From positions 16,898-80,897 of the forward strand of contig JALVQA010000009.1 in assembly GCA_027031495.1 (NCBI GenBank): a DNA stretch of 64,000 nucleotides. Reading direction: 5' to 3'. Position numbers and translations under genes: made by a program. The notes under the pieces were generated by a model. That model saw nothing but the letters and a program-made list of their open reading frames with translations. It was not told where the DNA came from and did not search any database. Of this stretch, positions 2,232 through 51,694 are shown in pieces (positions within the stretch are counted from its first letter, which is position 1; every line of letters begins with the position of its first letter). Source of the stretch: Candidatus Moraniibacteriota bacterium. Lineage in GTDB: Bacteria; Patescibacteriota; Minisyncoccia; Moranbacterales; GCA-2747515.

Positions 2232-4499
2232 ATGAAGCTTCTTATTGTTGAATCTCCCACAAAGGCACGCACTATCGGCAAATACCTCCCGAAGAATGAA
2301 AATTTTGTTGTTAAGGCAAGTGTTGGCCATGTACGCGATCTTCCCAAGAGCAATAAAAAAGCTATTGATATTGATGCTGGCTTTGTACCGCACTATGAGA
2401 TTTCACCGGGCAAGGAAGACATTGTTGCCGACCTTGCACGCGCAGCACAACAAGCAGACGAGATCTACCTCGCACCTGACCCGGATCGCGAAGGTGAGGC
2501 AATTGCATGGCACCTCATCGAAGCACTCAACCTCAAAAAAGCACCAAACGTCAAGCGCATTACATTTAATGAAATCACAAAAACAGCCGTACAAAACGCC
2601 CTCAAACATCCGCGTGGTATTGATGATAATTTACGCCGCGCACAGGAAGCGCGCCGCGTACTAGATCGTCTCTTTGGCTATGATCTCTCCGGCCTTATCT
2701 GGAAAAAAGTGCGCTACGGTCTCAGTGCCGGTCGCGTACAGTCCCCTGCTCTGCGCATTCTGGTAGAGCGTGAACGTGAGATACGTGCTTTTGTGCCGGA
2801 CATATTTTGGACAATTACTGCAGACCTTATACCAAATGGTCACAAAAAACCGCTTACTTTCACATGCAGCGAAGAGTTTATTGCACACATGAAGGGCAAA
2901 AGCGAGAAAGAACAAGAAAAAGAAAAGGTACGTATCAAGAAAAAAGTAGATGCGCTTATTGCACATGGCTTAAAAGCTTCATGGCACGTAAGCGCTATCA
3001 AGGAAACCGAACAAAAGCGAGCGCCACACCCGCCATTTACAACATCCACATTGCAACAAGTGGCAAGTTCTCGCCTTGGTTTTACACCAAGTCGCACGAT
3101 GCGTGCCGCACAGAAGCTCTATGAAGCAGGCCACATCACGTACATGCGTACAGATTCCGTTACCCTTAGTAATGATGCTCTCAAAAACATTGCCGCTGTT
3201 GTGCAAAAAGAGTATGGCAAAGAATTGCATCAGACGCGTCTCTATAAAACAAAGAGTAAGAATGCGCAAGAAGCGCACGAGGCAATACGCCCGACAGATG
3301 CCGCACTGCAGACTGCGGGTGCAAGCAGTGATGAGAAAAAACTTTACACACTTATTCGCACGCGCACGCTTGCTTCACAAATGGTTGACGCTCGCATTCT
3401 ACGTACAAAGGTTAGTGCGAATATTACATCATCAAAAACGTTTCCCGATTTTATCGTAACCGGTTCGCATGTTATCGCACCCGGTTGGCTCACGGCTGAT
3501 ACAGCAGCACGCAATGAAGATGTGGATTTGCCAAAAATGTCTGTTGGCGATGCACTCACACTCAAAGATATTAACGCTGAAGAAAAGCAAACGCAGTCAC
3601 CAAAGCGTTACACCGAAGCCGGACTGGTCAAGGAACTGGAAAAGCGCGGTATCGGACGTCCGTCCACCTATGCCACCATTGTCAAAACCATCCAAGACCG
3701 CGGCTACGTTAAAAAAGATGGTCGCACACTCATCCCAACAGAAACCGGCATGGTCGTCAGCACATTTATTGAAAAATATTTTGGCCCCTACATTAGTGAC
3801 GATTTTACGGCTGAAATGGAAAATGAACTTGATGAAATTGCTGCTGGCAAGCGCGACTATACTAAAACGCTCAAAGACTTCTATACAGCTTTTCACAAAG
3901 ATGTCAGCGCAAAAGAAGATATTCCAAAACTTACAAACCTCGGCGATGCTAATCCGAAATATACGTGTCCGCAGTGTGGCGGTAAAATGGTTGTCAAACT
4001 CTCAAAAAACGGCACATTTCTCTCATGCGCAAAATTTCCGGCATGCGATGGCGCGCGCACTGCTGACGGTGAAATTATGGAGGGTCCTAAAGAGACCGGT
4101 GAGACTTGTCCTGAGTGTAGCGCACCGCTCGTGGAACGCACCGGTCGCTATGGCAAGTTTATCTCCTGCTCCAATTACCCGAAGTGCAAATACATTAAAG
4201 AAGACCCAGAGGAGGCCGCTAAAAAGAAAACAGGTGTAACGTGCCCGCAGTGCGGTACCGGTGAAATGGTGGAGCGCCGTGGCCGCTTCGGCGTGTTTTA
4301 CTCCTGCTCCAATTACCCAAAGTGTAAAAACGCCATCAAAGCACGCCCAACCGGCAAACTCTGCGCCTACAAGCGCGACGACCGTGACGGCAAAGCATGT
4401 GGCGCACTCATGATGGAAGGTACAAAAACCATCCCTGAGCGGTGTAGTGACAAAACCTGCCCCAACCACAACCCGCACAAACTGGCGAAGAAAAAATGA
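2232..4499 (+). CDS. topA: DNA topoisomerase I
   Basis: The TOPRIM N-terminus reads MKLLIVESPTKARTIGKYL...GHVRDLP. The C-terminus carries repeated zinc ribbons (CPQCGG...CAKFPACDG, CPECSAP, CPQCGTG). Confidence 0.95.
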   Translation: MKLLIVESPTKARTIGKYLPKNENFVVKASVGHVRDLPKSNKKAIDIDAGFVPHYEISPGKEDIVADLARAAQQADEIYLAPDPDREGEAIAWHLIEALNLKKAPNVKRITFNEITKTAVQNALKHPRGIDDNLRRAQEARRVLDRLFGYDLSGLIWKKVRYGLSAGRVQSPALRILVEREREIRAFVPDIFWTITADLIPNGHKKPLTFTCSEEFIAHMKGKSEKEQEKEKVRIKKKVDALIAHGLKASWHVSAIKETEQKRAPHPPFTTSTLQQVASSRLGFTPSRTMRAAQKLYEAGHITYMRTDSVTLSNDALKNIAAVVQKEYGKELHQTRLYKTKSKNAQEAHEAIRPTDAALQTAGASSDEKKLYTLIRTRTLASQMVDARILRTKVSANITSSKTFPDFIVTGSHVIAPGWLTADTAARNEDVDLPKMSVGDALTLKDINAEEKQTQSPKRYTEAGLVKELEKRGIGRPSTYATIVKTIQDRGYVKKDGRTLIPTETGMVVSTFIEKYFGPYISDDFTAEMENELDEIAAGKRDYTKTLKDFYTAFHKDVSAKEDIPKLTNLGDANPKYTCPQCGGKMVVKLSKNGTFLSCAKFPACDGARTADGEIMEGPKETGETCPECSAPLVERTGRYGKFISCSNYPKCKYIKEDPEEAAKKKTGVTCPQCGTGEMVERRGRFGVFYSCSNYPKCKNAIKARPTGKLCAYKRDDRDGKACGALMMEGTKTIPERCSDKTCPNHNPHKLAKKK

Positions 4500-4513: not shown

Positions 4514-4550
4514 AAAAAAACACACACTTCCGGTAGTGTGTGTTTTTAAC
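4514..4550. terminator. Bidirectional intrinsic terminator between convergent topA and the ureohydrolase-like gene
   Basis: aaaaaaaCACACACttccggtagGTGTGTGttttt forms a 8-9 bp stem. It has an A-run on one side and a T-run on the other. Confidence 0.6.
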
Positions 4551-4551
4551 A

Positions 4552-5310
4552 TCATTCCGTTGCTCGCGTAAATGTGTCTTGAATTTCCTGTACAACTTTC
4601 TGCATTGTCTCGCGTGGTAGACGTTCAAGATCTGTCCACGCAGACGAACTAAAAACACAGACGCATTTTGCGCGTTTCACGAGACCTTTTAACTTTTCGA
4701 TGTATAAATTAAACTTATCTGTTCCCGGCTTAATGTTGTTAAAAAAGTCCATGTCAATAGACAAAACTTCTGGTGATAAGGCATCTACGTCATGTACACC
4801 AACTGATTTTATGTACAATGCCGGAGAATACGCCATGTTTGGTGTAGCTGTTGATCTCTCCGGCTGCCAGTTATATGACTGCTGTCTTTGCCACAAGTGA
4901 TTGTCAACACCATATCTTTGCCACGATGCGGAATGACAAACGAAGGAATTTGTATATGGTGCAATATCTGCATGTTCATCAACGTTTACTATTGTGTGGA
5001 TCGGGAGTTGAATGATACCAGCATTAACCGCACGGTACAAAAAAGGAAAAATGAGACCATGTGTGTCACCATACATAATGGCTCTTTTGTGCTTCTTGTC
5101 TATTAGTTCAGCGGTTTCCAGCTCGCACCTTCCTTTTCCTACTTTTATTTTCGGATATTCATTTGGCAATAATTCTCTCGGCTCTATCGGCATATTCTGT
5201 GCAACCTCACGTAATTTCTTGTGCAGAAAAAATTGTACACGCTCTCGCATATCCGTATTGCCTCGTTCCTTTAATTTATCACCAACACCAATGGGCATTT
5301 CTTTTTTCAT
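4552..5310 (-). CDS. Small arginase/ureohydrolase-fold metallohydrolase (putative)
   Basis: Three motifs occur in the order and spacing of the arginase/agmatinase/formiminoglutamase family: YGDTHG (~GGDHS), NVDEHADI (~DAHxD) and SIDMDFF (~SxDxDxxDP). The start lies 12 nt after the stop of the upstream 1117-aa gene. Confidence 0.45.
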   Translation of the reverse strand: MKKEMPIGVGDKLKERGNTDMRERVQFFLHKKLREVAQNMPIEPRELLPNEYPKIKVGKGRCELETAELIDKKHKRAIMYGDTHGLIFPFLYRAVNAGIIQLPIHTIVNVDEHADIAPYTNSFVCHSASWQRYGVDNHLWQRQQSYNWQPERSTATPNMAYSPALYIKSVGVHDVDALSPEVLSIDMDFFNNIKPGTDKFNLYIEKLKGLVKRAKCVCVFSSSAWTDLERLPRETMQKVVQEIQDTFTRATE

Positions 5311-5321
5311 ATCTTCAACAA

Positions 5322-8300
5322 TTAGGTATTTTGACTGTTATTTTCAACGACTTGCACAATTCTCAATGGCACAACATTCCTAACCCGCTTGCTTTCCTCA
5401 TCAAACTGAATCACAACATCGTCTTTATACCACTTTCTTCCCACATTAAGCTGATCACGGAACATACGTGTTAATGTGTTCAACTTACTTGATACTTCTG
5501 ACATAATGCCAGCAATTTCTTCTTCCGTATATTGTTTACTATCACGAAGAATTTTTTCAAAGTCCTTACCAGGATAGCCATTAACCTTCTTTGTAAGAAC
5601 ATAGTTGCCGTACTTATCATCTTTACTGGAAAGAAAACCGAGAGGTTCTGGCGCCGGCACACCAACATCTTGCGCGGCTATAAGCAACGCATGCTCTTTT
5701 CTTGCATATTTTGATGTTCCCTTACCCATGTACCTGGCAACAACTTCTGTGCCATCATTTAATTGAAAAAATACATCTGTTGTTGCAACACCTTCGTTAT
5801 CCATGCTTTTAGCTTTTTGTTCTCTCATGAATTTTTGCGGGTCTTCGGTAAAATCAGAAGGAATAACTTTAGCATATTCACGACATATACGTATACGGTG
5901 ACTTTCTGTATCATAATACACATTATCCGGCACTCTAAAGTGAAGTCGCTCTTGTATCATGTAATGACGTGCAAGCGCTTGTTTAATCATTGCAAAGTTA
6001 AACTGCTCTCTTGCCGTTGTTGGCTTTGCTATATAATGAATCTTACCAGTCTTTTCATCTATAAATAGTCCGCGCGCCATCTCTTCAGGTTTAGCATTAC
6101 TCTCAATACGCTCAACAGCAGCTCCATTGAGATCATAAGACATATTTCTAATTTGACGAACTTGACGATTGATGCGAGTGGTTGATAAAAGACGTATGCG
6201 CTCCTCAATGTCTTCATCATCAAAATCCATGATACGCATCATGTCTTCCGGAACAGTTCCTACATAGCCCGTGTCGTAAAACAATGGATCCATATCTGGT
6301 GTAATACGTTCTTGTTCCAAAAATGCTCGCTTGACATCGTACTTAAGATAATCTCTAAAGTACCGCGGGTACACAATATAGCGCGGATTTATCTCAATGA
6401 TTTCACCACTTGAACGAAGGCGCGCACGTTTCTCTTTTCCAGTTAGAGAGCGCCGTATGGCATCTTGCGCACGTCTACCAATGTAGGCGTAAATACCGTC
6501 ACGCCCAATATAAACTTCCATCGGATACCGGCCACCTTCTCGCCAACTATCAAATTCCTTGTAGAGCTTGTCATACAATGGGATGTCAGTATTATAAACG
6601 TCAAGATAAAGTTTGTAACCCTCTCTGACTATACCCTTGATAGAATCTTTATACACTTCAATAACATAATCTAATTTTTGGGGAGCACCGTCCGCTACTT
6701 GTGCAAGATAGCGCCCAACAAAATTGCACACATTTGGAAAGAGATTATTCATTTTTACTTTACTTTCTTTACTTCCCATTAATGCCGCCTTGTCCTCTTC
6801 TGGCACATATGCATTCACACGAACTTTTTCCAAAAACGATTGATGCTCACTTTTTAACATCTTTGTAATTTCACGAATACTCTCAACTGATCTACTGGAT
6901 AACTTTAGACCAGCATTCTCCGGTGTACTCTTACCAGCTATTACACGACCAAGTCCAAGACTTTGGCGAATAGTGTGTAGTGGATGATCTCTAAACTTAT
7001 CCCCATCAAGAAACCCCATTTCCCCTTCTTCATCAAAACCTTCCTCCATGTTTTTAATTGTTATTTCAGCATCTGTCCCAACATTCTGCACCCATGGTTC
7101 ATGCGCCCACACAGCATTATCGTAAAAGTTGTCAATAAATTTATTTGCAACAGAATAGTGTGTTACCGCATTGTGCATGCAAACAGCAACCCACGGACGT
7201 GTATAATATTTTGGCAGATTCTCAAAAAAGTAGACTGCAGTATTTTTATCAGCTGCGATAGCGCCAGGAAGTAACTCTTTTATTTTTTTAAAGGTTTGCG
7301 GAAAGAGTGTTTCTATGTCATCAAGCAATGGAATCAAGATAGTGATAATATCATGTGTAAATGCTTCTTTCTTTGCTTGATCGAGATCAACACTAGTAAG
7401 TATATCAGCGGAGCCATCTATTGCATTTCGTAAATTCTTTATGCGCTCGACAAATTCTCTATTGTTGTTGCCCATAAAAGAATGGAGTGCCTCACGATAC
7501 AATGTCTCAATTACATTCTTGAGAACATCGTACGCGTGTATACGCAGTGATGAATCTGCCGTTTCATGAAGAGCGTCATTAAAAAATATTGATAATTTCT
7601 CAATACTTCGTCCGTTATATATCAGCGCCTGTGCACAGTATGCAAGTAACTTTTTCTGGATATCAACAGATGGCAGAACGTCTATACCATTTTGTGAGAA
7701 GTTGCATTTATGTAGGTCAGATTTATTATCAATAACAAAACCAGGCGGTATATTTTTGTCAGCACACTTTTGCAAAAGATTTATAAACTGTTTTTTCTCA
7801 CTCAAAGACTCAATGCTCTCATTTATACGTTTTACAAAGTATCTCCGATTTGCTTCATAAGATAATCCCATTGTCATTACTGAGAGCACTTTGTCAAGTT
7901 CTTTGCTATCAGTGATAACTTCCTGCCACAGTGCATAACGCCTCATCTCTTCCTTAACGGCAATAGAGACACTCTCTTCTTTATCAATGTCATAATGTCG
8001 CCCAAATAGTGTTTCTGCTGTAAAATTTCGTGGTGCATCCGGATCAAATAGAATTTTTTTTGCATCAATGTCATTTCGCGCCAATTGGTGTATAAATTGG
8101 CCAAATCGCTCAAGATCATCGCTTGTCTTTATAATTCCATCAATGCCGCGAAGTGCTATAAATATATTCATTTTTTCACTTGGTGATTGATCGTCGTTAA
8201 TCATGCGCACAAGAATTTCTAAGTCACGTGCAAAATCATCACGTATAAGTTGTGCCATATCAGTAATTGTGTAGTGAAGATTGCGTGCAATATATTCGTA

Positions 8301-8675
8301 ACCATGTATAATGACATCATCATCATTTCTTTGCACACATGCCTCAGCAACATCTATTATCACACGTGCATATTTGTAAAAATCTTCTGGTGTTGTAATG
8401 TTTTCAATGAAAACATTATTATCAAGAGAACGCATAACTTCCTGCACAACATTCATGTAACTATACATTTTTGACGAAGAAGTGTTGTGAAAGCGTGCAT
8501 GAACATAGTTTGTAATGTTGGTGATATGCTTCTCTACATCAACCTCATCAAAAGTGCTCAAAACTTCTACAAGTTTACTGTCCGTACATAGACCAAGACG
8601 TCCAGCAATGTCTGATTTTTTTCTCTCTCCTTCCACTACAAGTGACGGCATTTCGTAATAATCTCCCATTTTCAT
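5322..8675 (-). CDS. Large (1117 aa) protein of unknown function
   Basis: This is a long uninterrupted ORF with protein-like composition and no antisense competitor of comparable length. I recognise no family. It forms an operon with the downstream ureohydrolase-fold gene. Confidence 0.8.
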   Translation of the reverse strand: MKMGDYYEMPSLVVEGERKKSDIAGRLGLCTDSKLVEVLSTFDEVDVEKHITNITNYVHARFHNTSSSKMYSYMNVVQEVMRSLDNNVFIENITTPEDFYKYARVIIDVAEACVQRNDDDVIIHGYEYIARNLHYTITDMAQLIRDDFARDLEILVRMINDDQSPSEKMNIFIALRGIDGIIKTSDDLERFGQFIHQLARNDIDAKKILFDPDAPRNFTAETLFGRHYDIDKEESVSIAVKEEMRRYALWQEVITDSKELDKVLSVMTMGLSYEANRRYFVKRINESIESLSEKKQFINLLQKCADKNIPPGFVIDNKSDLHKCNFSQNGIDVLPSVDIQKKLLAYCAQALIYNGRSIEKLSIFFNDALHETADSSLRIHAYDVLKNVIETLYREALHSFMGNNNREFVERIKNLRNAIDGSADILTSVDLDQAKKEAFTHDIITILIPLLDDIETLFPQTFKKIKELLPGAIAADKNTAVYFFENLPKYYTRPWVAVCMHNAVTHYSVANKFIDNFYDNAVWAHEPWVQNVGTDAEITIKNMEEGFDEEGEMGFLDGDKFRDHPLHTIRQSLGLGRVIAGKSTPENAGLKLSSRSVESIREITKMLKSEHQSFLEKVRVNAYVPEEDKAALMGSKESKVKMNNLFPNVCNFVGRYLAQVADGAPQKLDYVIEVYKDSIKGIVREGYKLYLDVYNTDIPLYDKLYKEFDSWREGGRYPMEVYIGRDGIYAYIGRRAQDAIRRSLTGKEKRARLRSSGEIIEINPRYIVYPRYFRDYLKYDVKRAFLEQERITPDMDPLFYDTGYVGTVPEDMMRIMDFDDEDIEERIRLLSTTRINRQVRQIRNMSYDLNGAAVERIESNAKPEEMARGLFIDEKTGKIHYIAKPTTAREQFNFAMIKQALARHYMIQERLHFRVPDNVYYDTESHRIRICREYAKVIPSDFTEDPQKFMREQKAKSMDNEGVATTDVFFQLNDGTEVVARYMGKGTSKYARKEHALLIAAQDVGVPAPEPLGFLSSKDDKYGNYVLTKKVNGYPGKDFEKILRDSKQYTEEEIAGIMSEVSSKLNTLTRMFRDQLNVGRKWYKDDVVIQFDEESKRVRNVVPLRIVQVVENNSQNT

Positions 8676-8825
8676 ATTTTTTACATTAATTCTCTAGCAA
8701 ATTGTTCCTATTCCCTCATATCTCGTCCTGACAACGCAGAATTCTGTTAATCACTACAAAAGAATACCTCAACACTTTTTAGTATAACAGAAAAAGCTCG
8801 TACTTCATGATATTTGCAGTATTTC

Positions 8826-8860
8826 TCAAATAAAAAAGCTGGTGCTATAACAACACCAGC
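8826..8860 (-). terminator. Intrinsic terminator (minus strand) after the 75-aa gene
   Basis: On the minus strand GCTGGTG-ttgttatag-CACCAGC is followed by TTTTTTATTT. Confidence 0.6.
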
Positions 8861-8878
8861 ATTCTGCAACACTTTCCC

Positions 8879-9106
8879 TCAATCTCCATTATAGTTATGA
8901 AGAATAAAATCACTTTCCCTGAAAACAATGATATTACCGTCCCTAAACGGTCCTTGCGACGTAACATCCGCATTACATGGAGCAACAAAGAGCACGCCAC
9001 ATACCTTACCACCGGACACGTTTCGGAAGGCAATGTATCCTTCGCCCTTGGTGATGTTACGTACAGGCTTTGCGTCCTTCTTTCTTCTTGCACTTACTAT
9101 TTCCAC
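8879..9106 (-). CDS. Small protein (75 aa) with GTG start; possible PRC-barrel-like fold
   Basis: A perfect SD (AGGAGG) sits 8-9 nt upstream of the GTG. The TGA stop is followed within about 20 nt by an intrinsic terminator. Resemblance to YlmC/YmxH-type PRC-barrel proteins is weak. Confidence 0.5.
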   Translation of the reverse strand: MEIVSARRKKDAKPVRNITKGEGYIAFRNVSGGKVCGVLFVAPCNADVTSQGPFRDGNIIVFRESDFILHNYNGD

Positions 9107-34347: not shown

Positions 34348-36102
34348 TTATACGCCAATCAACCATTTTAATTTTTCCAGACGCTCGTCCGCAATAGAAC
34401 GCAAAAATGTACGCACAAGCACCACCGCCGTAAACATAGATACCGTCACACCGATAAAGAGAATAATTGCAAAACCCTGTACGAACCCACTGCCCACACC
34501 AATGAGGATAAGACAGATCAAAAGCGTTGATATGTTACCGTCACGAATACTTGGCCATGCGCGCTCAAAACCAATCGCAACCGCACTCTTGAGTGTCTTG
34601 CCACGACGGCGCTCTTCTTTGATACGCTCAAAGACGAGGATATTTGCATCAACAGCCATACCAACAGAAAGGATGAAGCCGGCAATACCCGGCAGTGTCA
34701 GTGTGATTGCAAGACCACCAGGCAAAAGACCGGAGAGCTTAAAGATTGTTACAACCGTCATCGCATAAACAACGAGCGCTACCGCTGCAACAAAACCAAA
34801 AAAACGATAGTAAAAGATCATGTAAATCATTGTTAACGCAAGACCTGCCATACCGGCCTTAAGCCCTGCCTTAAGTGCTGTCGCACCAAGTGAAGCATCC
34901 ACCGATTGCTGGGATACAAGTGTGATCGGTACCGGCAACGCACCTTCGTTAAGACGTGATGCAAGCGCCTTTGCTTCTTGTGGCGTAAAGCTACCTGTGA
35001 TCTGTGCCTCACCATTCGTAATTTCCGCTTGAATAACCGGTGCGCTAATTAACTGGTTGTCAACAAAAATTGCAAAACGCTCACCAATATGCCCCTTTGT
35101 GATATCAGCAAACATTTTCGTGCCTTCATCGTTAAAATGAAGTAATACGCCCGGCTCGCTAATACCACTACGTGACGCACTACCGGGATCATAATCCGCA
35201 CTCTCCAACTGTGCCCCGGTAAGTTGCGTTGGTTTCCACATAAGATCTGGGAAATCGGCAACTGTACGTTTCGCTACGAGAATATGTCGCGCACGCACTT
35301 CCCGCACCTCTTCCGTTTCACCGGGAATATCTTCCCCTGTCAATTGATCCTTCTTTGGGCGCGTTTTTATGCGCTCATCCTCTTTCTTGATAATGTGCCA
35401 CCCGTACTGTGTTTCCACAAGTTTTGGATAGACGGCACCAACAGCAAAATCGTCACTAAAAAGCACCTTATCAAACGGCTCTACAAACACGCCTTGTTCT
35501 ACGAAGCCGAGATCCCCACCTTTCTCAGCGCTGGCACGATCATCACTATACTCTTTTGTCAACTTCTCAAAATCCTCACCACTCAGCGCGCGCTTAAGAT
35601 ACTCCTGGGCACGTTTATGTGCTTCTTCGTTGACTTTTTTGATAAACTCCTGTGTTTGTGGATCATCCGAAATATCCTCGCGAAAATCAAGAAACGGTGT
35701 CTCCTTAATAACAGCTTTTGCTGCGTCAATATCGCGAAGTCCTGGCAACTCTACAACAAGGCGCTGCTCATCGCCGGCTGTAATGCGCTGTACAATTGGC
35801 TCACCAACACCAAAAGCATTGACGCGCCGCTCCACAACGGCTTGCACAGCATCAAGTGCATGCGCTTTCTCATCTGCTGTCGTACCATTGCCATTGCCAT
35901 CGTGTATATCTGATAAATCAATTGCATATTCCAGGTGGATACCGCCCTGCAAATCAAGACCAAGATTAACCTTCAGTGCTGCCACTTTTTCACCAAGCCA
36001 TGGCACACGTGCAACAGTCTGCGGAAATGTAATCACGGTAACACATACAACAAAAAGGGCGATAAGGCCAAGAGCTATACGATTCTTTGTTCGTCGTTTC
36101 AT
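34348..36102 (-). CDS. secD: Protein-export membrane protein SecD
   Basis: Carries GLDLQGGIHLEYAIDL and a periplasmic domain followed by the RND-like six-TM region. It lies directly upstream of secF. Confidence 0.9.
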   Translation of the reverse strand: MKRRTKNRIALGLIALFVVCVTVITFPQTVARVPWLGEKVAALKVNLGLDLQGGIHLEYAIDLSDIHDGNGNGTTADEKAHALDAVQAVVERRVNAFGVGEPIVQRITAGDEQRLVVELPGLRDIDAAKAVIKETPFLDFREDISDDPQTQEFIKKVNEEAHKRAQEYLKRALSGEDFEKLTKEYSDDRASAEKGGDLGFVEQGVFVEPFDKVLFSDDFAVGAVYPKLVETQYGWHIIKKEDERIKTRPKKDQLTGEDIPGETEEVREVRARHILVAKRTVADFPDLMWKPTQLTGAQLESADYDPGSASRSGISEPGVLLHFNDEGTKMFADITKGHIGERFAIFVDNQLISAPVIQAEITNGEAQITGSFTPQEAKALASRLNEGALPVPITLVSQQSVDASLGATALKAGLKAGMAGLALTMIYMIFYYRFFGFVAAVALVVYAMTVVTIFKLSGLLPGGLAITLTLPGIAGFILSVGMAVDANILVFERIKEERRRGKTLKSAVAIGFERAWPSIRDGNISTLLICLILIGVGSGFVQGFAIILFIGVTVSMFTAVVLVRTFLRSIADERLEKLKWLIGV

Positions 36103-46144: not shown

Positions 46145-48271
46145 TTATCTAATCTTCTTTGCCAAAAGACGCTCACCATCTATAACTTGCATTGCAATTT
46201 TGTCCAATACTCTTTTATTAGTTTTAACCCACTCTTTCTTATTTATTTTGTCTTCACTATAACTGTTTAAAAATCTCTTATAAGAAATATACTTATAACC
46301 TAATTCATCAAAATCACCAATTTGTACTGTATCAACAATTGGAATAATATCATGCTGCAAATATTCTATAAGTTTGGTTGGGCAAGCTGCGCGATTCACA
46401 ATAACATCTTCACGCAACACGAGTCCAAAATCAGCCTTGTTGTACCAATATTTTACATCGTCTGGTCCGGCAGATATAACTATACCTGGAAATGATTCCC
46501 GAAACTTCTTAGTATAAATGTCTTTTAATTCATCTGGCTGAGGAACAAGAAATACAAAATCATATCTTTTCTGTAGAGAATGCACAAAATCAAGCATCTT
46601 GTGTACTTGTTGCCACTTCTGTAATCCGCCGCAATAGATAATAACTTCTTTATCTTTTATTGATTTCATTGTTGGCTTTGCGCTCCCGCTAGAGGAAGTC
46701 GGAAAGATTGGCAAAAGTAATATTCTTGATTTTTTAAGGAAAGAATACTTACATCTTAAGTGCTTTGCCATCATATTTGTGACAACAATAACTACATTAG
46801 CTCTTCTAATAGCAAATTTTTCTATTTCATTAAAATCTTTGTAGCCAATTTTGTCACCATGAAAGAGAAACTCTTCTGGAACAACACCGTGAACATCAAG
46901 AATTCTTTTTCTAGCAGTTCTGAAAAGAATTCTATGCAATTTAGAATTTAAACGAAGAATACTATGCAAATAAATCCTCCCAGAAAGAATGTGCACAATA
47001 AGAAGAGCAAGAAATCCTATCGGATTCTTCTTATTAATTGATATTTCAAAGGTGTTAGCATTAATTTTGTTAATCATTCTAAAATCATTGCGAGATATCT
47101 TCCCGGAATAGTATCTTACATAAAATTTTAGGTATACTGACAATATTTTATCGATAGCATTAACTCTCTGAAAGTAGCCATCTTTTAGATCATCTTCGGT
47201 AGGATAATGTACTAGAAATAATATTTTTCGCGTTAATACGATATATGATATCCTTTTGTATCGTATATGTATAAAACGCCATATTCTATTCAAAAGATTA
47301 TAGAAACGTAACGATGCTTTTATAAAAAGGCTATCGCATTTCTGAGTTATATTTGTTAAGTGATCGATTGTACTCACTATTATCTCGTAGTAGTTGTCAA
47401 AAACATTCTTCGCATACTTATCATCATTATGCGACAGTAGAAAATGCATATCTTGTTTGAAGCCAAGATATGGTAAAAGACTCCTGTCTTTCCAAGTAAT
47501 ATTGTGCTTATATTCAAATATAGTCTTATTCTTCTGCAAATGTCGCATTAGTTTGCGCACTGGAATTTGCGAAAAAGATGCGGTACCCCAATGGTATAAG
47601 AAAACGTCTCTTGCTATGTGCATTTTGAATCCTGCATTTAAAATGCGCAAACAATAATCATCGTCTTCGAACGCACCGCGCCCGAAAATCTCATCAAGAT
47701 ATCCCACCTTCAAAAATAGCTCACGCGTCCCGATAAAACAAAAAAAACCTAGAAAATTCGTTTCTTTTACAAAATTCTCAAATAAGATATACCTTTTTTG
47801 AGCAAATTTATTAATTTTTTCAAAGTTATTATCGCAAGAATCCAATTGTAAATCTGTAGCAATTGTTTGCTCATTTCCACAAGCATTTGTTACGGGACCA
47901 ATCGCATCAGAATCATGAGCAATTAGACGGTCTAGCCAGTAATCAGTAAGAATAACATCACTATTCAATAGGCAAATATGTGTAATATCATCTTCTTTAA
48001 GAAATTTTTTGATACCAATGTTGTTACCACCTGGAAAACCAGTATTATGATTCATTCGAATTAACTCATCGTCAAAATCGACGCGCTCTTTCTTTAATAA
48101 ATCAAACGCACGTTTAATTTTTTTAAATTCTGCCAATCTTGATGCATTGTCAATAACACAAATACTAAAACGTGTATCATTCTTTGCGCGCACCAAAGAA
48201 TCTAAACACTGCTCAACAACATCAGCTCTATTATAAGTGAGTATGACAATGCCAACTCTTATCTCATTCAT
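46145..48271 (-). CDS. Multidomain glycosyltransferase (N-terminal GT2 + C-terminal GT1/GT4-like)
   Basis: The GT2 motifs are VGIVILTYNR...VIDNAS, a DxD and FEDDDYCLR. The C-terminal part (about 230 aa) is Rossmann-like. The segment is very AT-rich. Confidence 0.8.
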   Translation of the reverse strand: MNEIRVGIVILTYNRADVVEQCLDSLVRAKNDTRFSICVIDNASRLAEFKKIKRAFDLLKKERVDFDDELIRMNHNTGFPGGNNIGIKKFLKEDDITHICLLNSDVILTDYWLDRLIAHDSDAIGPVTNACGNEQTIATDLQLDSCDNNFEKINKFAQKRYILFENFVKETNFLGFFCFIGTRELFLKVGYLDEIFGRGAFEDDDYCLRILNAGFKMHIARDVFLYHWGTASFSQIPVRKLMRHLQKNKTIFEYKHNITWKDRSLLPYLGFKQDMHFLLSHNDDKYAKNVFDNYYEIIVSTIDHLTNITQKCDSLFIKASLRFYNLLNRIWRFIHIRYKRISYIVLTRKILFLVHYPTEDDLKDGYFQRVNAIDKILSVYLKFYVRYYSGKISRNDFRMINKINANTFEISINKKNPIGFLALLIVHILSGRIYLHSILRLNSKLHRILFRTARKRILDVHGVVPEEFLFHGDKIGYKDFNEIEKFAIRRANVVIVVTNMMAKHLRCKYSFLKKSRILLLPIFPTSSSGSAKPTMKSIKDKEVIIYCGGLQKWQQVHKMLDFVHSLQKRYDFVFLVPQPDELKDIYTKKFRESFPGIVISAGPDDVKYWYNKADFGLVLREDVIVNRAACPTKLIEYLQHDIIPIVDTVQIGDFDELGYKYISYKRFLNSYSEDKINKKEWVKTNKRVLDKIAMQVIDGERLLAKKIR

Positions 48272-48282
48272 AGTGTATTTTT

Positions 48283-50622
48283 TTATAAAAGCTCTTTATA
48301 TAATTTATCGTACTGTTTTGACATATTTTCTACAGTATATTTCTCCTTGATTTTTTTGCGTCCTTGCAATGCTTTTTTGCGCCATGTTGTATGATTACGA
48401 TACATCGCAACCATAGCATTTTTAATGCTATCGATATTCTTAATATTTTTATCGTTAGTATAAAAATTATGCACATCTTTTGGAGATATATCTGAGACAT
48501 CATTATACGGATTATCTACTATAATGCCAATGTCAGAATCATTAATTACATCTCTTGCAGATCCAATATCCGACAAAATCATTGGCAACTGCGCATACAT
48601 TGCCTCTAAAACAGCAATGCTACAACCTTCAATAAGTGATGGCATAATAAAACAGTCTGACATCTGTAATATGCTCATAACCTTTTTCTTCGGCATATAT
48701 TTCATAATGCGAATATTTTTGTCGAGATGCCGTTTTTTAATCTCACTTGCTATATAATCATAGCATGATTTGTCCAAAATATTGCCCATAAAAATCATTT
48801 TGAACTTTGGATATTTTTCAATGAGCCGATCCATTGCAACGACCATGCTAATATGGAATTTATGCCAGTTAAATGAAGCAATATTAATAAAGATAAAATC
48901 ATCTTCAGAAAATCCATATACATCACGGCATCCTTTTTCAAAATTTTTCACTAAATCTACATTGATACCATTTAATATAACAGAAATGTTATCTTTTTCG
49001 ATATGAAATTTTTCTGTGAAGTATTCCTTTACCTGACTTGAAACAGCAACAAACCGATCAATGCCCGCATAAAACCTCTTTCTAGATTTAATAAATTCTT
49101 TGTCAGCCCAGATATAGTTGTTATGTATCGTGTAGACACTTTTAATACCCAATTTTCTATATATATCGAAACCAAAATCACTGTAGTGAAAATGTATAAT
49201 ATCGGGTCGGTATTTATTTAGCACTTTCTTTAAAAGAAACCTGTTTCCATGTAGATTAATTACGTTAATTCCGCTTTTTTTTGCAACTTTTTCCATGTAC
49301 CCATTCTTACCAAATGATGCAATTACACAAACATTGTAGGTTTCTTTAAGTGAACGAGCCAGAGCAAAGACAACCTCTTCTAATCCACCTTTATCAAAAG
49401 AATGCACTTGCAAAAAAATTAATTTCGCTTTTCTTTCATTAAAATGTAAACGTTGTTGATTTATTGACAAAAGAGCGTGAAAGAATAAAATACCATTTTT
49501 TATGTTGGTTAAAGGCACATACTTCATTAAACAAAAATTCTTGGTTTTTTCTTTGCAATGCCTTACAAAGATATTCGGTTTCTTTATAACTCTCGTAATA
49601 TTTTTTTTATAACGAACGTACACATTTCTCAATTGCCAAAATTTTGATGATTTCATATATCGAATTTCAAAATCTTTCTGTGCATTCACTTTTTCTTGCT
49701 CAGCTATCTGTTTTGAGAGTTGTGCATTCACTTTTTCTTGCTCAGCTATCTGTTTTGAGAGTTGTGCATTCACTTTTTCTTGCTCAGCTATCTGTTTTGA
49801 GAGCTTATTTATTTGTTCCAAAAGAATGTAGAATTTTTCATCTCTTTTTGTTCCTTTGTTTAAAAAGGCATCACTTGCAAGATTAACAACGTCTTCATAA
49901 CTAAAATCATCACTACCAGTCAAAAAAACCACCTTATTATGACGTAATTTATCACTGATAAAATTAGCTATTTCTCGTTGCTTTGCGCTATCCGTATAAT
50001 CAATATTTAAAAAATCACAAACTCTTCGTAATTCTTTATGCGCATCAACAAAATAGTTATCAAAGAATGTAAAAATCCTATCTTTGCCTTTCGTGTATTT
50101 TAAAATTGATCTAATATACGTTAACCACAACATTATACCATCGTCCAGGTTAATGCCATCACGCTTGTGTAATGACGCCGCTACATTTGCTGGATGCCTA
50201 ACAGGAATCACATATTTCATATGCGGAATAACTTTTTGCCAAAAAGGAAGCGTCAACGACGTTCTCGGCTCCTTAAATCCCCAAATTTCATGTGCACCAT
50301 TCATTTTTTTAACAACTTCTCGTGCTCTTTCATACAACTGATTTAATCTCTTATCGTCTTCCCATTTATCAAGAAGTCTTGGCGGCATGTCCCACGTACC
50401 GCCAAAGGTTTCGAGTATCTTTTCATTAATATGAAGAATTTCTATATTCTCCCAATGTCCCTTTATATTTTCACTATAACTCTTTGTCATGATGTTTTTC
50501 TCATCACCAAGAGATAGGCCACAAATATTCAAAAGGCGTGTTATCATTGACGTACCACTTCTGTGCATTCCCAGTATACAGACAACTGTATTCTCTTTCC
50601 TGTTCATAATTTTGTTCAGCAT
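48283..50622 (-). CDS. Sulfotransferase-glycosyltransferase (GT4) fusion protein with tandem-repeat coiled-coil linker
   Basis: The N-terminal domain has a PAPS 5'-PSB loop (GMHRSGTSM) and a 3'-PB motif (VRHPANVAAS). The linker is LSKQIAEQEKVNAQ x3. The C-terminal GT4 has the EX7E-type motif (PSLIEGCSIAVLEAMYAQLPMI). I chose the start at an internal Met to avoid overlap with sat. Confidence 0.8.
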   Translation of the reverse strand: MLNKIMNRKENTVVCILGMHRSGTSMITRLLNICGLSLGDEKNIMTKSYSENIKGHWENIEILHINEKILETFGGTWDMPPRLLDKWEDDKRLNQLYERAREVVKKMNGAHEIWGFKEPRTSLTLPFWQKVIPHMKYVIPVRHPANVAASLHKRDGINLDDGIMLWLTYIRSILKYTKGKDRIFTFFDNYFVDAHKELRRVCDFLNIDYTDSAKQREIANFISDKLRHNKVVFLTGSDDFSYEDVVNLASDAFLNKGTKRDEKFYILLEQINKLSKQIAEQEKVNAQLSKQIAEQEKVNAQLSKQIAEQEKVNAQKDFEIRYMKSSKFWQLRNVYVRYKKNITRVIKKPNIFVRHCKEKTKNFCLMKYVPLTNIKNGILFFHALLSINQQRLHFNERKAKLIFLQVHSFDKGGLEEVVFALARSLKETYNVCVIASFGKNGYMEKVAKKSGINVINLHGNRFLLKKVLNKYRPDIIHFHYSDFGFDIYRKLGIKSVYTIHNNYIWADKEFIKSRKRFYAGIDRFVAVSSQVKEYFTEKFHIEKDNISVILNGINVDLVKNFEKGCRDVYGFSEDDFIFINIASFNWHKFHISMVVAMDRLIEKYPKFKMIFMGNILDKSCYDYIASEIKKRHLDKNIRIMKYMPKKKVMSILQMSDCFIMPSLIEGCSIAVLEAMYAQLPMILSDIGSARDVINDSDIGIIVDNPYNDVSDISPKDVHNFYTNDKNIKNIDSIKNAMVAMYRNHTTWRKKALQGRKKIKEKYTVENMSKQYDKLYKELL
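49681..49806. repeat. Three perfect 42-nt tandem repeats inside the sulfotransferase-GT4 gene
   Basis: tgcattcactttttcttgctcagctatctgttttgagagttg occurs three times, identical at the nucleotide level. It encodes a 14-aa heptad-like repeat. Confidence 0.9.
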
Positions 50623-50626
50623 TTTA

Positions 50627-51694
50627 TCAATCAACAAATATGCTTTTTCTACTCTCCAAATACGCCACAACCTCTTTCCGCATAAATTTATCAGGAATTT
50701 CTTCTTTTTCGATCAGTCTGCGACGCAACTCTGTACCGGATAAAAAGACTTTGTCATCATCTGTGTGCGGACACGTACCATCAGGCGTCATGTTCTCACA
50801 CTTTTTACAATAACACACATTGTTATATTTGAATATTTTAATACAAAGTTCATCCTCACGAAACCGCTTGAAAATATTTTGTGCATCATACGTACCATAA
50901 TAATTGCCGACACCGGCATGGTCGCGTCCGATAATCATGTGCGTGCACCCAAAATTTTTCCGTACTTGCGCATGGAAAACAGCCTCACGCGGACCGGCAT
51001 AGCGCATATAGGTGTGAAATGTTGACAATTCAACCGTATCTTTTTTGTAGTAGCGCTCAATGAGAATGTTATAAGCGCCGATGATGTATTCATCCTTGAT
51101 ATCACCTTCCTTTTTTGGCCCGATAACCGGTTGAATAAGGAGACCATCTACCTGTGCTAGAGCACGTTTTTGCAAGAATTCATGTGAGCGGTGTGGTGGG
51201 TTGCGTGTTTGAAACGCAACAATATGCGTCCAAGCGTGTTTCTTAAAGATCTCCTTCATTTCTGCCGGTGTTTTGTAGTATGGATACGTATTTTTAAATT
51301 CGCGCCCGACAACACGATCTACGTTGCCGCCGACAAAGTATTCCTTCAATCCATATAACCGCGCAACGCCGGGATGTTTTTTGTCGGTTGTGCCATAAAG
51401 TGCCTGCGCCATGCGATCACGATCAATTTTATAGATACTTGGTTTGGAAATATAGAACTGTTTACCTTCTCTGTTTTCAATAATAAAATCGTTGTCACCA
51501 ATCTCTTCTTTTTGCTCACGTGTTATGTCAAGAATAATTGGCATCGCCCATATGCGTCCATCTGTCAGACGGAAATGTGTGGCAATGCTCTCAAAATCGT
51601 CCTTGCCCGTAAAACCTTTTAGTGGCGCGTAAACACCATCAGCAATATTGCACGCCTCTTGCATGACAACATCATCAACAAGTATTTTCTTCAT
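50627..51694 (-). CDS. sat: Sulfate adenylyltransferase (ATP sulfurylase, homo-oligomeric Sat type)
   Basis: Carries QTRNPPHRSHE and GRDHAG motifs. Confidence 0.9.
   Translation of the reverse strand: MKKILVDDVVMQEACNIADGVYAPLKGFTGKDDFESIATHFRLTDGRIWAMPIILDITREQKEEIGDNDFIIENREGKQFYISKPSIYKIDRDRMAQALYGTTDKKHPGVARLYGLKEYFVGGNVDRVVGREFKNTYPYYKTPAEMKEIFKKHAWTHIVAFQTRNPPHRSHEFLQKRALAQVDGLLIQPVIGPKKEGDIKDEYIIGAYNILIERYYKKDTVELSTFHTYMRYAGPREAVFHAQVRKNFGCTHMIIGRDHAGVGNYYGTYDAQNIFKRFREDELCIKIFKYNNVCYCKKCENMTPDGTCPHTDDDKVFLSGTELRRRLIEKEEIPDKFMRKEVVAYLESRKSIFVD

Follow-up and report, generated by a model that had tools for sequence, protein, structure and literature searches.

Do two genes that lie almost end to end among housekeeping genes form a functional module, and what do they encode? 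This question is raised by a stretch of 64,000 nt from Candidatus Moraniibacteriota bacterium (assembly GCA_027031495.1, contig JALVQA010000009.1, positions 16,898 to 80,897), hereafter the window, in which an open reading frame (ORF) for a protein of 1117 residues, the big protein, is followed on the minus strand by an ORF for a protein of 252 residues, the small protein. A preliminary description of this DNA had seen in them a large multidomain protein translationally coupled to a compact arginase-fold metallohydrolase, and had likened the unit to self-contained accessory modules such as modification or defence systems. We confirmed both ORFs and their order within one unit. Our analysis reveals that both proteins are new variants of known folds without a curated family, that the family of the big protein is unannotated in the databases searched, and that nothing indicates that the two genes work together: among the loci surveyed, the pair is adjacent in this genome only. 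The best explanation, which we hold with moderate confidence, is that they are two co-transcribed, functionally independent accessory genes within a low-G+C insertion between topA and rel.

The evidence that carries this view comes from 80 related loci, obtained by scanning metagenome contigs for members of the big family, in which the small gene was sought by tblastn with nine small-family proteins. A homologue of the small gene was found in none of the 80 loci; in 53 of them, representing 37 distinct lineages at 90% identity, the sequence extends at least 800 nt past the gene. Downstream of the gene for P0012, a protein 52% identical to the big protein, lie DUF389 and AI-2E transporter genes or else a gene in opposite orientation, and downstream of that for P0013 lies an acetyltransferase gene. 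Across the related loci, no neighbour gene recurs beside the big family and no synteny with the window neighbours was found. The same picture emerges from the small family, whose members lie after dnaA-dnaN-dciA, beside purA in a metagenome-assembled genome (MAG) of Myxococcota, or in contigs labelled Gammaproteobacteria where they are cut by an insertion sequence (IS); no big homologue was detected near any of the small-homologue loci examined, and a scan of genome contigs with the small family returned one Myxococcota MAG only. The two families also differ in size, with ten members for the small one against at least 188 clusters for the big one. As for defence, PADLOC gave a sole hit, to DrmC, in the N-terminus of the big protein (E 1e-3, 16.6 bits) and none in the small protein. 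The self-contained accessory module of the preliminary description is thus not borne out, the pair being conserved as neighbours nowhere, and tight spacing and shared terminators in one genome are not evidence of a functional module.

What is then the small protein? The AlphaFold2 model built on the family alignment (mean predicted local distance difference test, pLDDT, 87; predicted template modelling score, pTM, 0.85) has an arginase/deacetylase alpha/beta fold, and H84, D111, H113, D115, D186 and D188, the six predicted metal ligands, are invariant in the alignment of 10 homologues. The preliminary description had recognised three ureohydrolase motifs in canonical order and spacing. The order holds and the spacing is near that of E. 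coli SpeB, with 27 residues from H84 to D111 and 71 from D115 to D186 in the small protein and 23 and 77 in SpeB. A profile-to-sequence alignment with hhalign likewise matched the six invariant residues to the SpeB metal-binding motifs GGDH, DAHTD and FDID, with a statistically weak E value of 0.04. The assignment to the arginase fold was therefore upheld by ligand conservation, model and SpeB alignment alike.

Sequence models did not identify this relationship. None of the Pfam, NCBIfam, PADLOC or PDB sequence models matched the small protein above threshold, nor did the family profile match anything in the PDB, and in all 10 small-family members the Pfam and NCBIfam models for arginase (PF00491) or UPF0489 gave no match even at E <= 10. 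There was a weak NCBIfam peptide-arginase match over residues 169-205 (E 0.11). The comparison with the peptide arginase OspR (PDB 8BRP; FlmR/OhkR family NF052474) illustrates the distance, since the small protein scores 11.9 bits against a cut-off of 350 and, unlike OspR, has no precursor or maturation genes for ribosomally synthesised and post-translationally modified peptides among its window neighbours. With the ureohydrolases (arginase, agmatinase, formiminoglutamase; PF00491; for example PDB 3LHL and SpeB) it has in common the fold and the six ligands in canonical order, and only 150-172 of its residues superpose on ureohydrolase structures. The small family has, between motifs 2 and 3, an insert of its own, rich in invariant Trp, Gln and His (H126, W130, Q131, W140, N147, W148), that is not found in ureohydrolases.

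A further difference concerns the substrate. In ureohydrolases, a Glu on the last core strand holds the guanidinium group, and in SpeB this strand reads D-V-V-E-V-x-P. In the small family, no acidic residue is invariant after D188 and the strand reads C-V-x-V-F-S-S-S, a Ser-Ser-Ser standing at the place of the Glu as judged by inspection, because the hhalign alignment ends before it. Since a conserved guanidinium-binding Glu appears to be absent, the substrate is probably other than free arginine or agmatine. Ligand pattern and model place the small protein in the arginase superfamily, not filed as arginase or agmatinase, with a metal centre that is probably binuclear (Mn-type); most likely it works as an amidino-, amido- or related hydrolase that depends on metal. 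Its predicted metal site is intact, and its substrate pocket appears different.

The small family is a very rare, patchily distributed, compact orphan branch of the arginase superfamily. A search of 5.8 billion clustered proteins gave ten relatives only, with 47-66% identity. Its member closest to the small protein (62% over 193 residues; L013:715-1311, also L014-L017) is a remnant, truncated at the 3′ end by insertion of a DDE transposase (IS), and the annotated ORF has just 147 residues.

Why had the family of the big protein gone unnoticed? Pfam, NCBIfam, PADLOC and single-sequence PDB searches returned nothing above threshold for it, and the PDB searches with single sequences and profiles gave no significant match (best: APH domain of ACAD11, E 0.24; IpaD, E 0.26). 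Weak matches to GIPC1_GH2, FucT_N, BrnA, DUF1798 and DrmC in the Pfam, NCBIfam and PADLOC scans of both proteins were taken as noise. A word-indexed homology search with the big protein found two relatives only, and a search of this kind based on an alignment returned the closest two only. It was the exhaustive phmmer search of 1.84 billion cluster representatives that uncovered at least 188 relatives, counted as clusters at 50% identity. The earlier view that the giant ORF belongs to no recognisable family therefore stands as regards sequence families, and fails in that relatives are recognised by fold, namely the CriT domain and glycan phosphoribosyltransferases (gPRTs) on the one hand and RIO/WaaP kinases on the other.

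A jackhmmer domain map over the cluster representatives set the module boundaries and counts (Table 1). The core, residues 690-915 in this map, is present in 135 cluster representatives; the N-termini are highly variable across the big family, and many members end right after the core. No transmembrane segment or signal peptide was detected in the big protein by hydropathy, so that it is most likely a cytoplasmic enzyme. Judging by contig names, the family comes from groundwater and lake metagenomes, including 0.1-0.2 µm filter fractions, and a scan of viral contigs found no relatives. P0013 (1911 residues; L009:2206-7941) is a distant relative that shares only the N-terminal module, in three tandem copies of about 220 residues (BLASTP); its C-terminus is unrelated, and its gene lies between an SNase-domain gene and the small acetyltransferase gene.

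The AlphaFold2 model of residues 440-1117, built on an alignment of 62 sequences (pLDDT 91.9, pTM 0.87), shows that the C-terminal 450 residues consist of a CriT/gPRT-like fold followed by a RIO/WaaP-like kinase fold. When this model was used as query in Foldseek, Bcs3 ranked first, and kinases and APHs came next. In Bcs3, the gPRT is the CriT domain, and the gPRT structures 8A0C and 7SHG show a phosphoribosyltransferase (PRTase)-like five-stranded alpha/beta domain within helical bundles (PMC10299916; PMC11294581). These enzymes move ribose-5-phosphate from phosphoribosyl pyrophosphate (PRPP) to a sugar acceptor, after which a HAD-type phosphatase removes the 5-phosphate (PMC10299916; PMC11294581). 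The big-protein model has the defining arrangement of this ‘ribosyltransferase fold’, a PRTase-like catalytic domain set in helical bundles, and its relatives, the CriT domain of H. influenzae Bcs3 (PDB 8A0C/8A0M) and the ribofuranosyltransferase of Thermobacillus composti (PDB 7SHG), have the same fold at 14-16% identity. At this level of identity, the PDB profile search gave no link between the big family and the gPRT structures.

The residues conserved in 119 core sequences are mostly polar residues or glycines (Y701, D709, E720, G724-R725-D726-G727, R734, Y766, D801-T802-G803, G806 and P809, and further on R837, E858, K862, R903 and H904), a pattern typical of the active site of an enzyme. 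Conservation is highest in two loops, where R725 and D726 each reach 99%, D801 100%, T802 95%, G803 96% and G806 99%. In CriT, S678-R679-D680 follow the first strand, R679 contacting the pyrophosphate of PRPP and D680 the ribose; E818, the main chain of residues 821-825 and T825, after a later strand, hold the ribose and 5-phosphate; R708/R712 also belong to the PRPP-binding set, and E874 is the proposed base (PMC10299916). The changes D680A and E818A impair Bcs3 activity (PMC10299916). In position and chemistry, R725, D726, D801, T807 and E858 would be equivalent to R679, D680, E818, T825 and E874 of CriT, as model and alignment suggest; E858 lies 57 residues past D801, and E874 lies 56 past E818.

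The C-terminal domain model, very short with about 200 residues, has a bilobal kinase fold, and some members give weak Pfam matches to APH, Kdo and RIO1 that stay below threshold. The family consensus contains the marks of a minimal kinase, namely V-A-K, an alphaC Glu, a catalytic-loop K-D and P-I-D-W/F-E. Of 51 domains counted, 43 have the beta3 Lys, 49 the alphaC Glu, 49 the catalytic-loop Asp and 38 the DFG-like metal-binding Asp. While the family majority keeps all four catalytic residues, the window protein has R981, E994, D1086 and R1105 at these positions and has thus lost two of them; the closest relative, P0012, also carries Arg at the Lys and DFG-like Asp positions. Because Arg replaces the beta3 Lys and the metal-binding Asp, the window copy is a probable pseudokinase. 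The domain has its fold in common with RIO, Bud32 and WaaP/Kdo-type kinase-like domains and differs from them in the window copy by degeneration at Lys and Asp. That kinase and coiled-coil modules can take part in glycan assembly is known from WbdD, a glycan-terminating kinase (PMC11231755).

How are the two genes organised in the window? The stop codon TAA of the big gene occupies 5324-5322 and the ATG of the small gene starts at 5310, so that 11 nt separate them; the close neighbourhood reported in the preliminary description is real. Database gene calls start at in-frame ATGs 2 and 4 codons further in, giving 1115 residues for the big and 248 for the small protein. A scan of the spacer found no terminator or promoter-like site. 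Translational coupling found no support, and the genes do not overlap. The strong bidirectional terminator and the separate upstream region described earlier were both recovered. Flanked by an A-run at one end and a T-run at the other, the hairpin folds on either strand (-15.9 and -16.8 kcal/mol; z -3.5 and -5.5), and topA ends at 4499. In the region upstream of the big gene, a promoter scan found no sigma-70-like match. The terminator beyond it insulates the two-gene unit from upstream transcription, and the big and small genes are probably co-transcribed as one unit with its own terminator. The 82-residue ORF preceding this unit (8845-9093, minus strand), transcribed divergently from rel, begins with GTG behind a strong AGGAGG ribosome-binding site, ends in a terminator of its own, and gave no family match.

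The housekeeping context noted earlier is also correct: pth, dprA and topA lie on one side, while the other holds rel, an SPFH/Band 7 gene, greA and PBP2. Both genes are compositionally distinct from it (G+C 0.408 for the big gene and 0.384 for the small gene, against 0.43-0.49 for the neighbours) and may have come jointly or successively within the low-G+C insertion between topA and rel.

If the two genes are independent, as we favour, the following mechanism can be proposed. The big protein would act in the cytoplasm, where its core (about residues 665-915) would bind PRPP via the GRDG and DTGxxGT loops together with conserved Arg and Lys residues, and would transfer ribose-5-phosphate to a hydroxyl acceptor. 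This acceptor would most plausibly be a cell-envelope glycan, by analogy with the sole structural relatives and with the WaaP and WbdD sugar kinases. In the majority of the family, the kinase-fold domain is catalytically intact and may phosphorylate this acceptor too, in the manner of WaaP and WbdD; in the window protein, having lost the ATP-binding Lys and the metal-binding Asp, it would probably serve as a binding or scaffold domain only. Targeting or interactions would be supplied by the variable N-terminal module. The small protein would be a compact hydrolase with a complete binuclear (Mn-type) site, adjacent to the big gene in this genome only.

Several observations weigh against this proposal. 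Every characterised gPRT has a fused or adjacent HAD-type phosphatase, called PRP (PMC11294581), whereas the big family has no such phosphoribose phosphatase: no HAD domain was found in 34 big-family members or in the window neighbours, and none recurs as a neighbour in related loci. The HB-2 helical insertion of CriT is also absent from the big family, and unlike CriT the domain is fused instead to a kinase-like domain and a large variable N-terminus. Glycan-assembly genes, such as those for ABC transporters or other glycosyltransferases (GTs), neither adjoin the big gene in the window nor recur as its neighbours in related loci, and a capsule or O-antigen gene context is lacking as well. The missing phosphatase, HB-2 and glycan-assembly context argue against simple gPRT membership and leave room for a different acceptor. 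Besides, the 11-nt spacing and the shared low G+C would also suit a functional pair that was assembled recently. Some of these facts bear on an alternative that we consider unlikely, in which the gPRT-like domain has retained the fold for other chemistry, with another phosphosugar or a nucleotide, or is non-catalytic, the protein being a scaffold or regulator. The low identity to gPRTs would fit, as would the Gly and Asp found in place of Ser678 and Glu818 of CriT, the absent HB-2 bundle and phosphatase and the degenerate kinase-like domain. However, replacing Glu by Asp and Ser by Gly is conservative within a PRPP loop, and conservation is strong precisely in polar residues of the predicted active-site loops, with D801, R725 and D726 nearly or fully invariant in 119 diverse sequences.

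Could the big protein rather be an effector or toxin by which a small-genome episymbiont acts on its host or on competitors, the PRTase-kinase unit modifying a target and the N-terminus providing delivery? Variable N-termini attached to a conserved C-terminal unit, tandem paralogues in several loci and the low G+C are in line with it; so is the origin of homologues from groundwater and lakes, including the 0.1-0.2 µm filter fractions, and mobility or switching is suggested by the long near-perfect inverted repeats that flank the gene in at least 25 related loci, often beside tRNA genes. We give this idea a minor chance, because the big protein has no signal peptide or transmembrane segment, the viral contigs yielded no copy, genes associated with secretion systems, immunity or toxins do not recur beside the big family, and the solved structural relatives are biosynthetic enzymes. 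That both genes constitute a self-contained accessory system of two components, serving modification or defence, whose products act on a shared substrate or on each other, is improbable. Such a system would agree with the common strand, the short gap free of internal terminator or promoter-like site, the terminators bounding the unit on both sides and the G+C of both genes, lower than in the flanks; moreover, characterised gPRTs need a second, hydrolytic activity, a phosphatase, that the big protein does not contain. Against it stand the absence of the pair from the 80 big-homologue loci and from every small-homologue context, the far greater rarity of the small family and a PADLOC match to DrmC that is not credible. 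No arginase-fold phosphatase is known, which also counts against a two-component system. Very improbable, finally, is the most far-reaching reading, by which the big family would be a new class of PRPP-dependent phosphoribosyltransferases coupled to a RIO/WaaP-like kinase, common among ultra-small bacteria of groundwater and lakes and frequently located in cassettes with flanking inverted repeats of about 430 bp, with the phosphatase step performed here by the co-transcribed arginase-fold enzyme. If true, the arginase fold would gain a chemistry new to it, and the pair would be a recently assembled pathway of two enzymes.

The assignment proposed for the big family has consequences of its own. 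The gPRT fold was recognised only in 2022-2023 and is defined by two structures, both of enzymes for capsule or O-antigen that invariably come with a HAD phosphatase. A distant branch comprising at least 188 clusters, in which the phosphatase is missing, a kinase-like domain is fused and the N-termini are highly variable, would extend PRPP-dependent glycosyl transfer beyond its present range. This would also provide a concrete, testable function for a group of very large hypothetical proteins known from bacteria that have not been cultivated.

Table 1. Coordinates of the features discussed (window positions, or locus and position for related loci).
Feature	Position	Strand	Basis or remark
ORF of the 1117-residue multidomain protein	5322-8675	minus	ORF listing; residues 1-1117
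ORF of the 252-residue arginase-fold protein, predicted binuclear metallohydrolase	4552-5310	minus	ORF listing; orphan family of about 10 proteins
Spacer between big and small gene	5311-5321	minus	11 nt; sequence and site scan
N-terminal module, residues 1-440	7356-8675	minus	In 22 cluster representatives; no family match
‘Mid’ region, all-helical, residues 441-664 (440-690 in jackhmmer map)	6684-7355	minus	AlphaFold2 model; 92 of 135 core-bearing representatives
CriT/gPRT-like phosphoribosyltransferase-fold domain, residues 665-915	5931-6683	minus	Flanking helices and parallel alpha/beta core
RIO/WaaP/Bud32-like minimal protein-kinase-like domain, residues 916-1117	5325-5930	minus	54 cluster representatives
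G724-R725-D726-G727 loop after first core strand, proposed pyrophosphate and ribose contact	6495-6506	minus	92-99% conserved
D801-T-G-Y-V-G-T807 loop after third core strand, proposed ribose and 5-phosphate loop	6255-6275	minus	Leads into helix
Motif 1, G81-D-T-H84-G, H84 predicted first metal ligand	5056-5070	minus	H84 invariant; pairs with His of SpeB GGDH
Motif 2, D111-E-H113-A-D115, three predicted metal ligands	4966-4980	minus	All invariant; align to SpeB D-A-H-T-D
Motif 3, S184-I-D186-M-D188, two predicted metal ligands	4747-4761	minus	Both invariant; align to SpeB F-D-I-D
Bidirectional intrinsic-terminator hairpin between convergent topA and small gene	4516-4547	both	13-bp stem; inverted repeat
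Intergenic region upstream of big gene, presumed promoter region	8676-8837	minus	162 nt
Terminator of preceding 82-residue ORF	8838-8860	minus	10-bp stem and T-run; fold z -3.4
Inverted-repeat arms in related loci	L026:1081-1515 and 6139-6573; L040:1-422 and 5511-5932; L043:1-227 and 4083-4309		Reference element L065:5051-5900

At least 25 of the 80 related loci have inverted repeats bracketing a big homologue or two such genes in tandem, with arms of 435 nt (99% identical), 422 nt (100%) and 227 nt (98%) in the examples of Table 1. About 330 nt separate the left arm from the start codon, and the right arm starts at the stop codon. Between loci with genes only about 74% identical, a block of 155 nt within the repeat reaches 93-97% identity, and several contigs start and finish inside the repeat, with tRNA genes close by. 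The repeat has no Rfam match and no copy in the window. An ORF recurring upstream in 12 loci looked spurious and was suspected to be rRNA; Rfam gave no match, and it proved to be an arm of the long inverted repeat. The repeat-flanked segment could be an invertible or mobile cassette. In other cases, family genes stand in tandem a few nt apart (L031:426-6628, L065:5865-12067, L066, L072, L082/L083 and L092/L093), which suggests local duplication and diversification.

Elsewhere in the window, nearly all genes past 10.8 kb lie on the minus strand, SMC (784 residues) and Rel (523 residues) are both short, and Rfam and tRNA scans of the 64 kb found no tRNA, rRNA or any Rfam family, features consistent with a reduced, strongly strand-biased genome. 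A placement in CPR/Patescibacteria is plausible and would agree with the short Rel and SMC, with the strand bias and with the habitats from which the homologues come. Positions 46145-50670, of low G+C (0.31-0.33 against 0.44 for the window), encode a 708-residue GT2 glycosyltransferase and a 795-residue sulfotransferase-GT4 fusion and are probably an acquired surface-glycan modification island. Finally, positions 34348-36102 encode an unusual fusion, a SecD-like protein with a PPIC-type peptidyl-prolyl isomerase (rotamase) domain inserted between the P1 subdomains.

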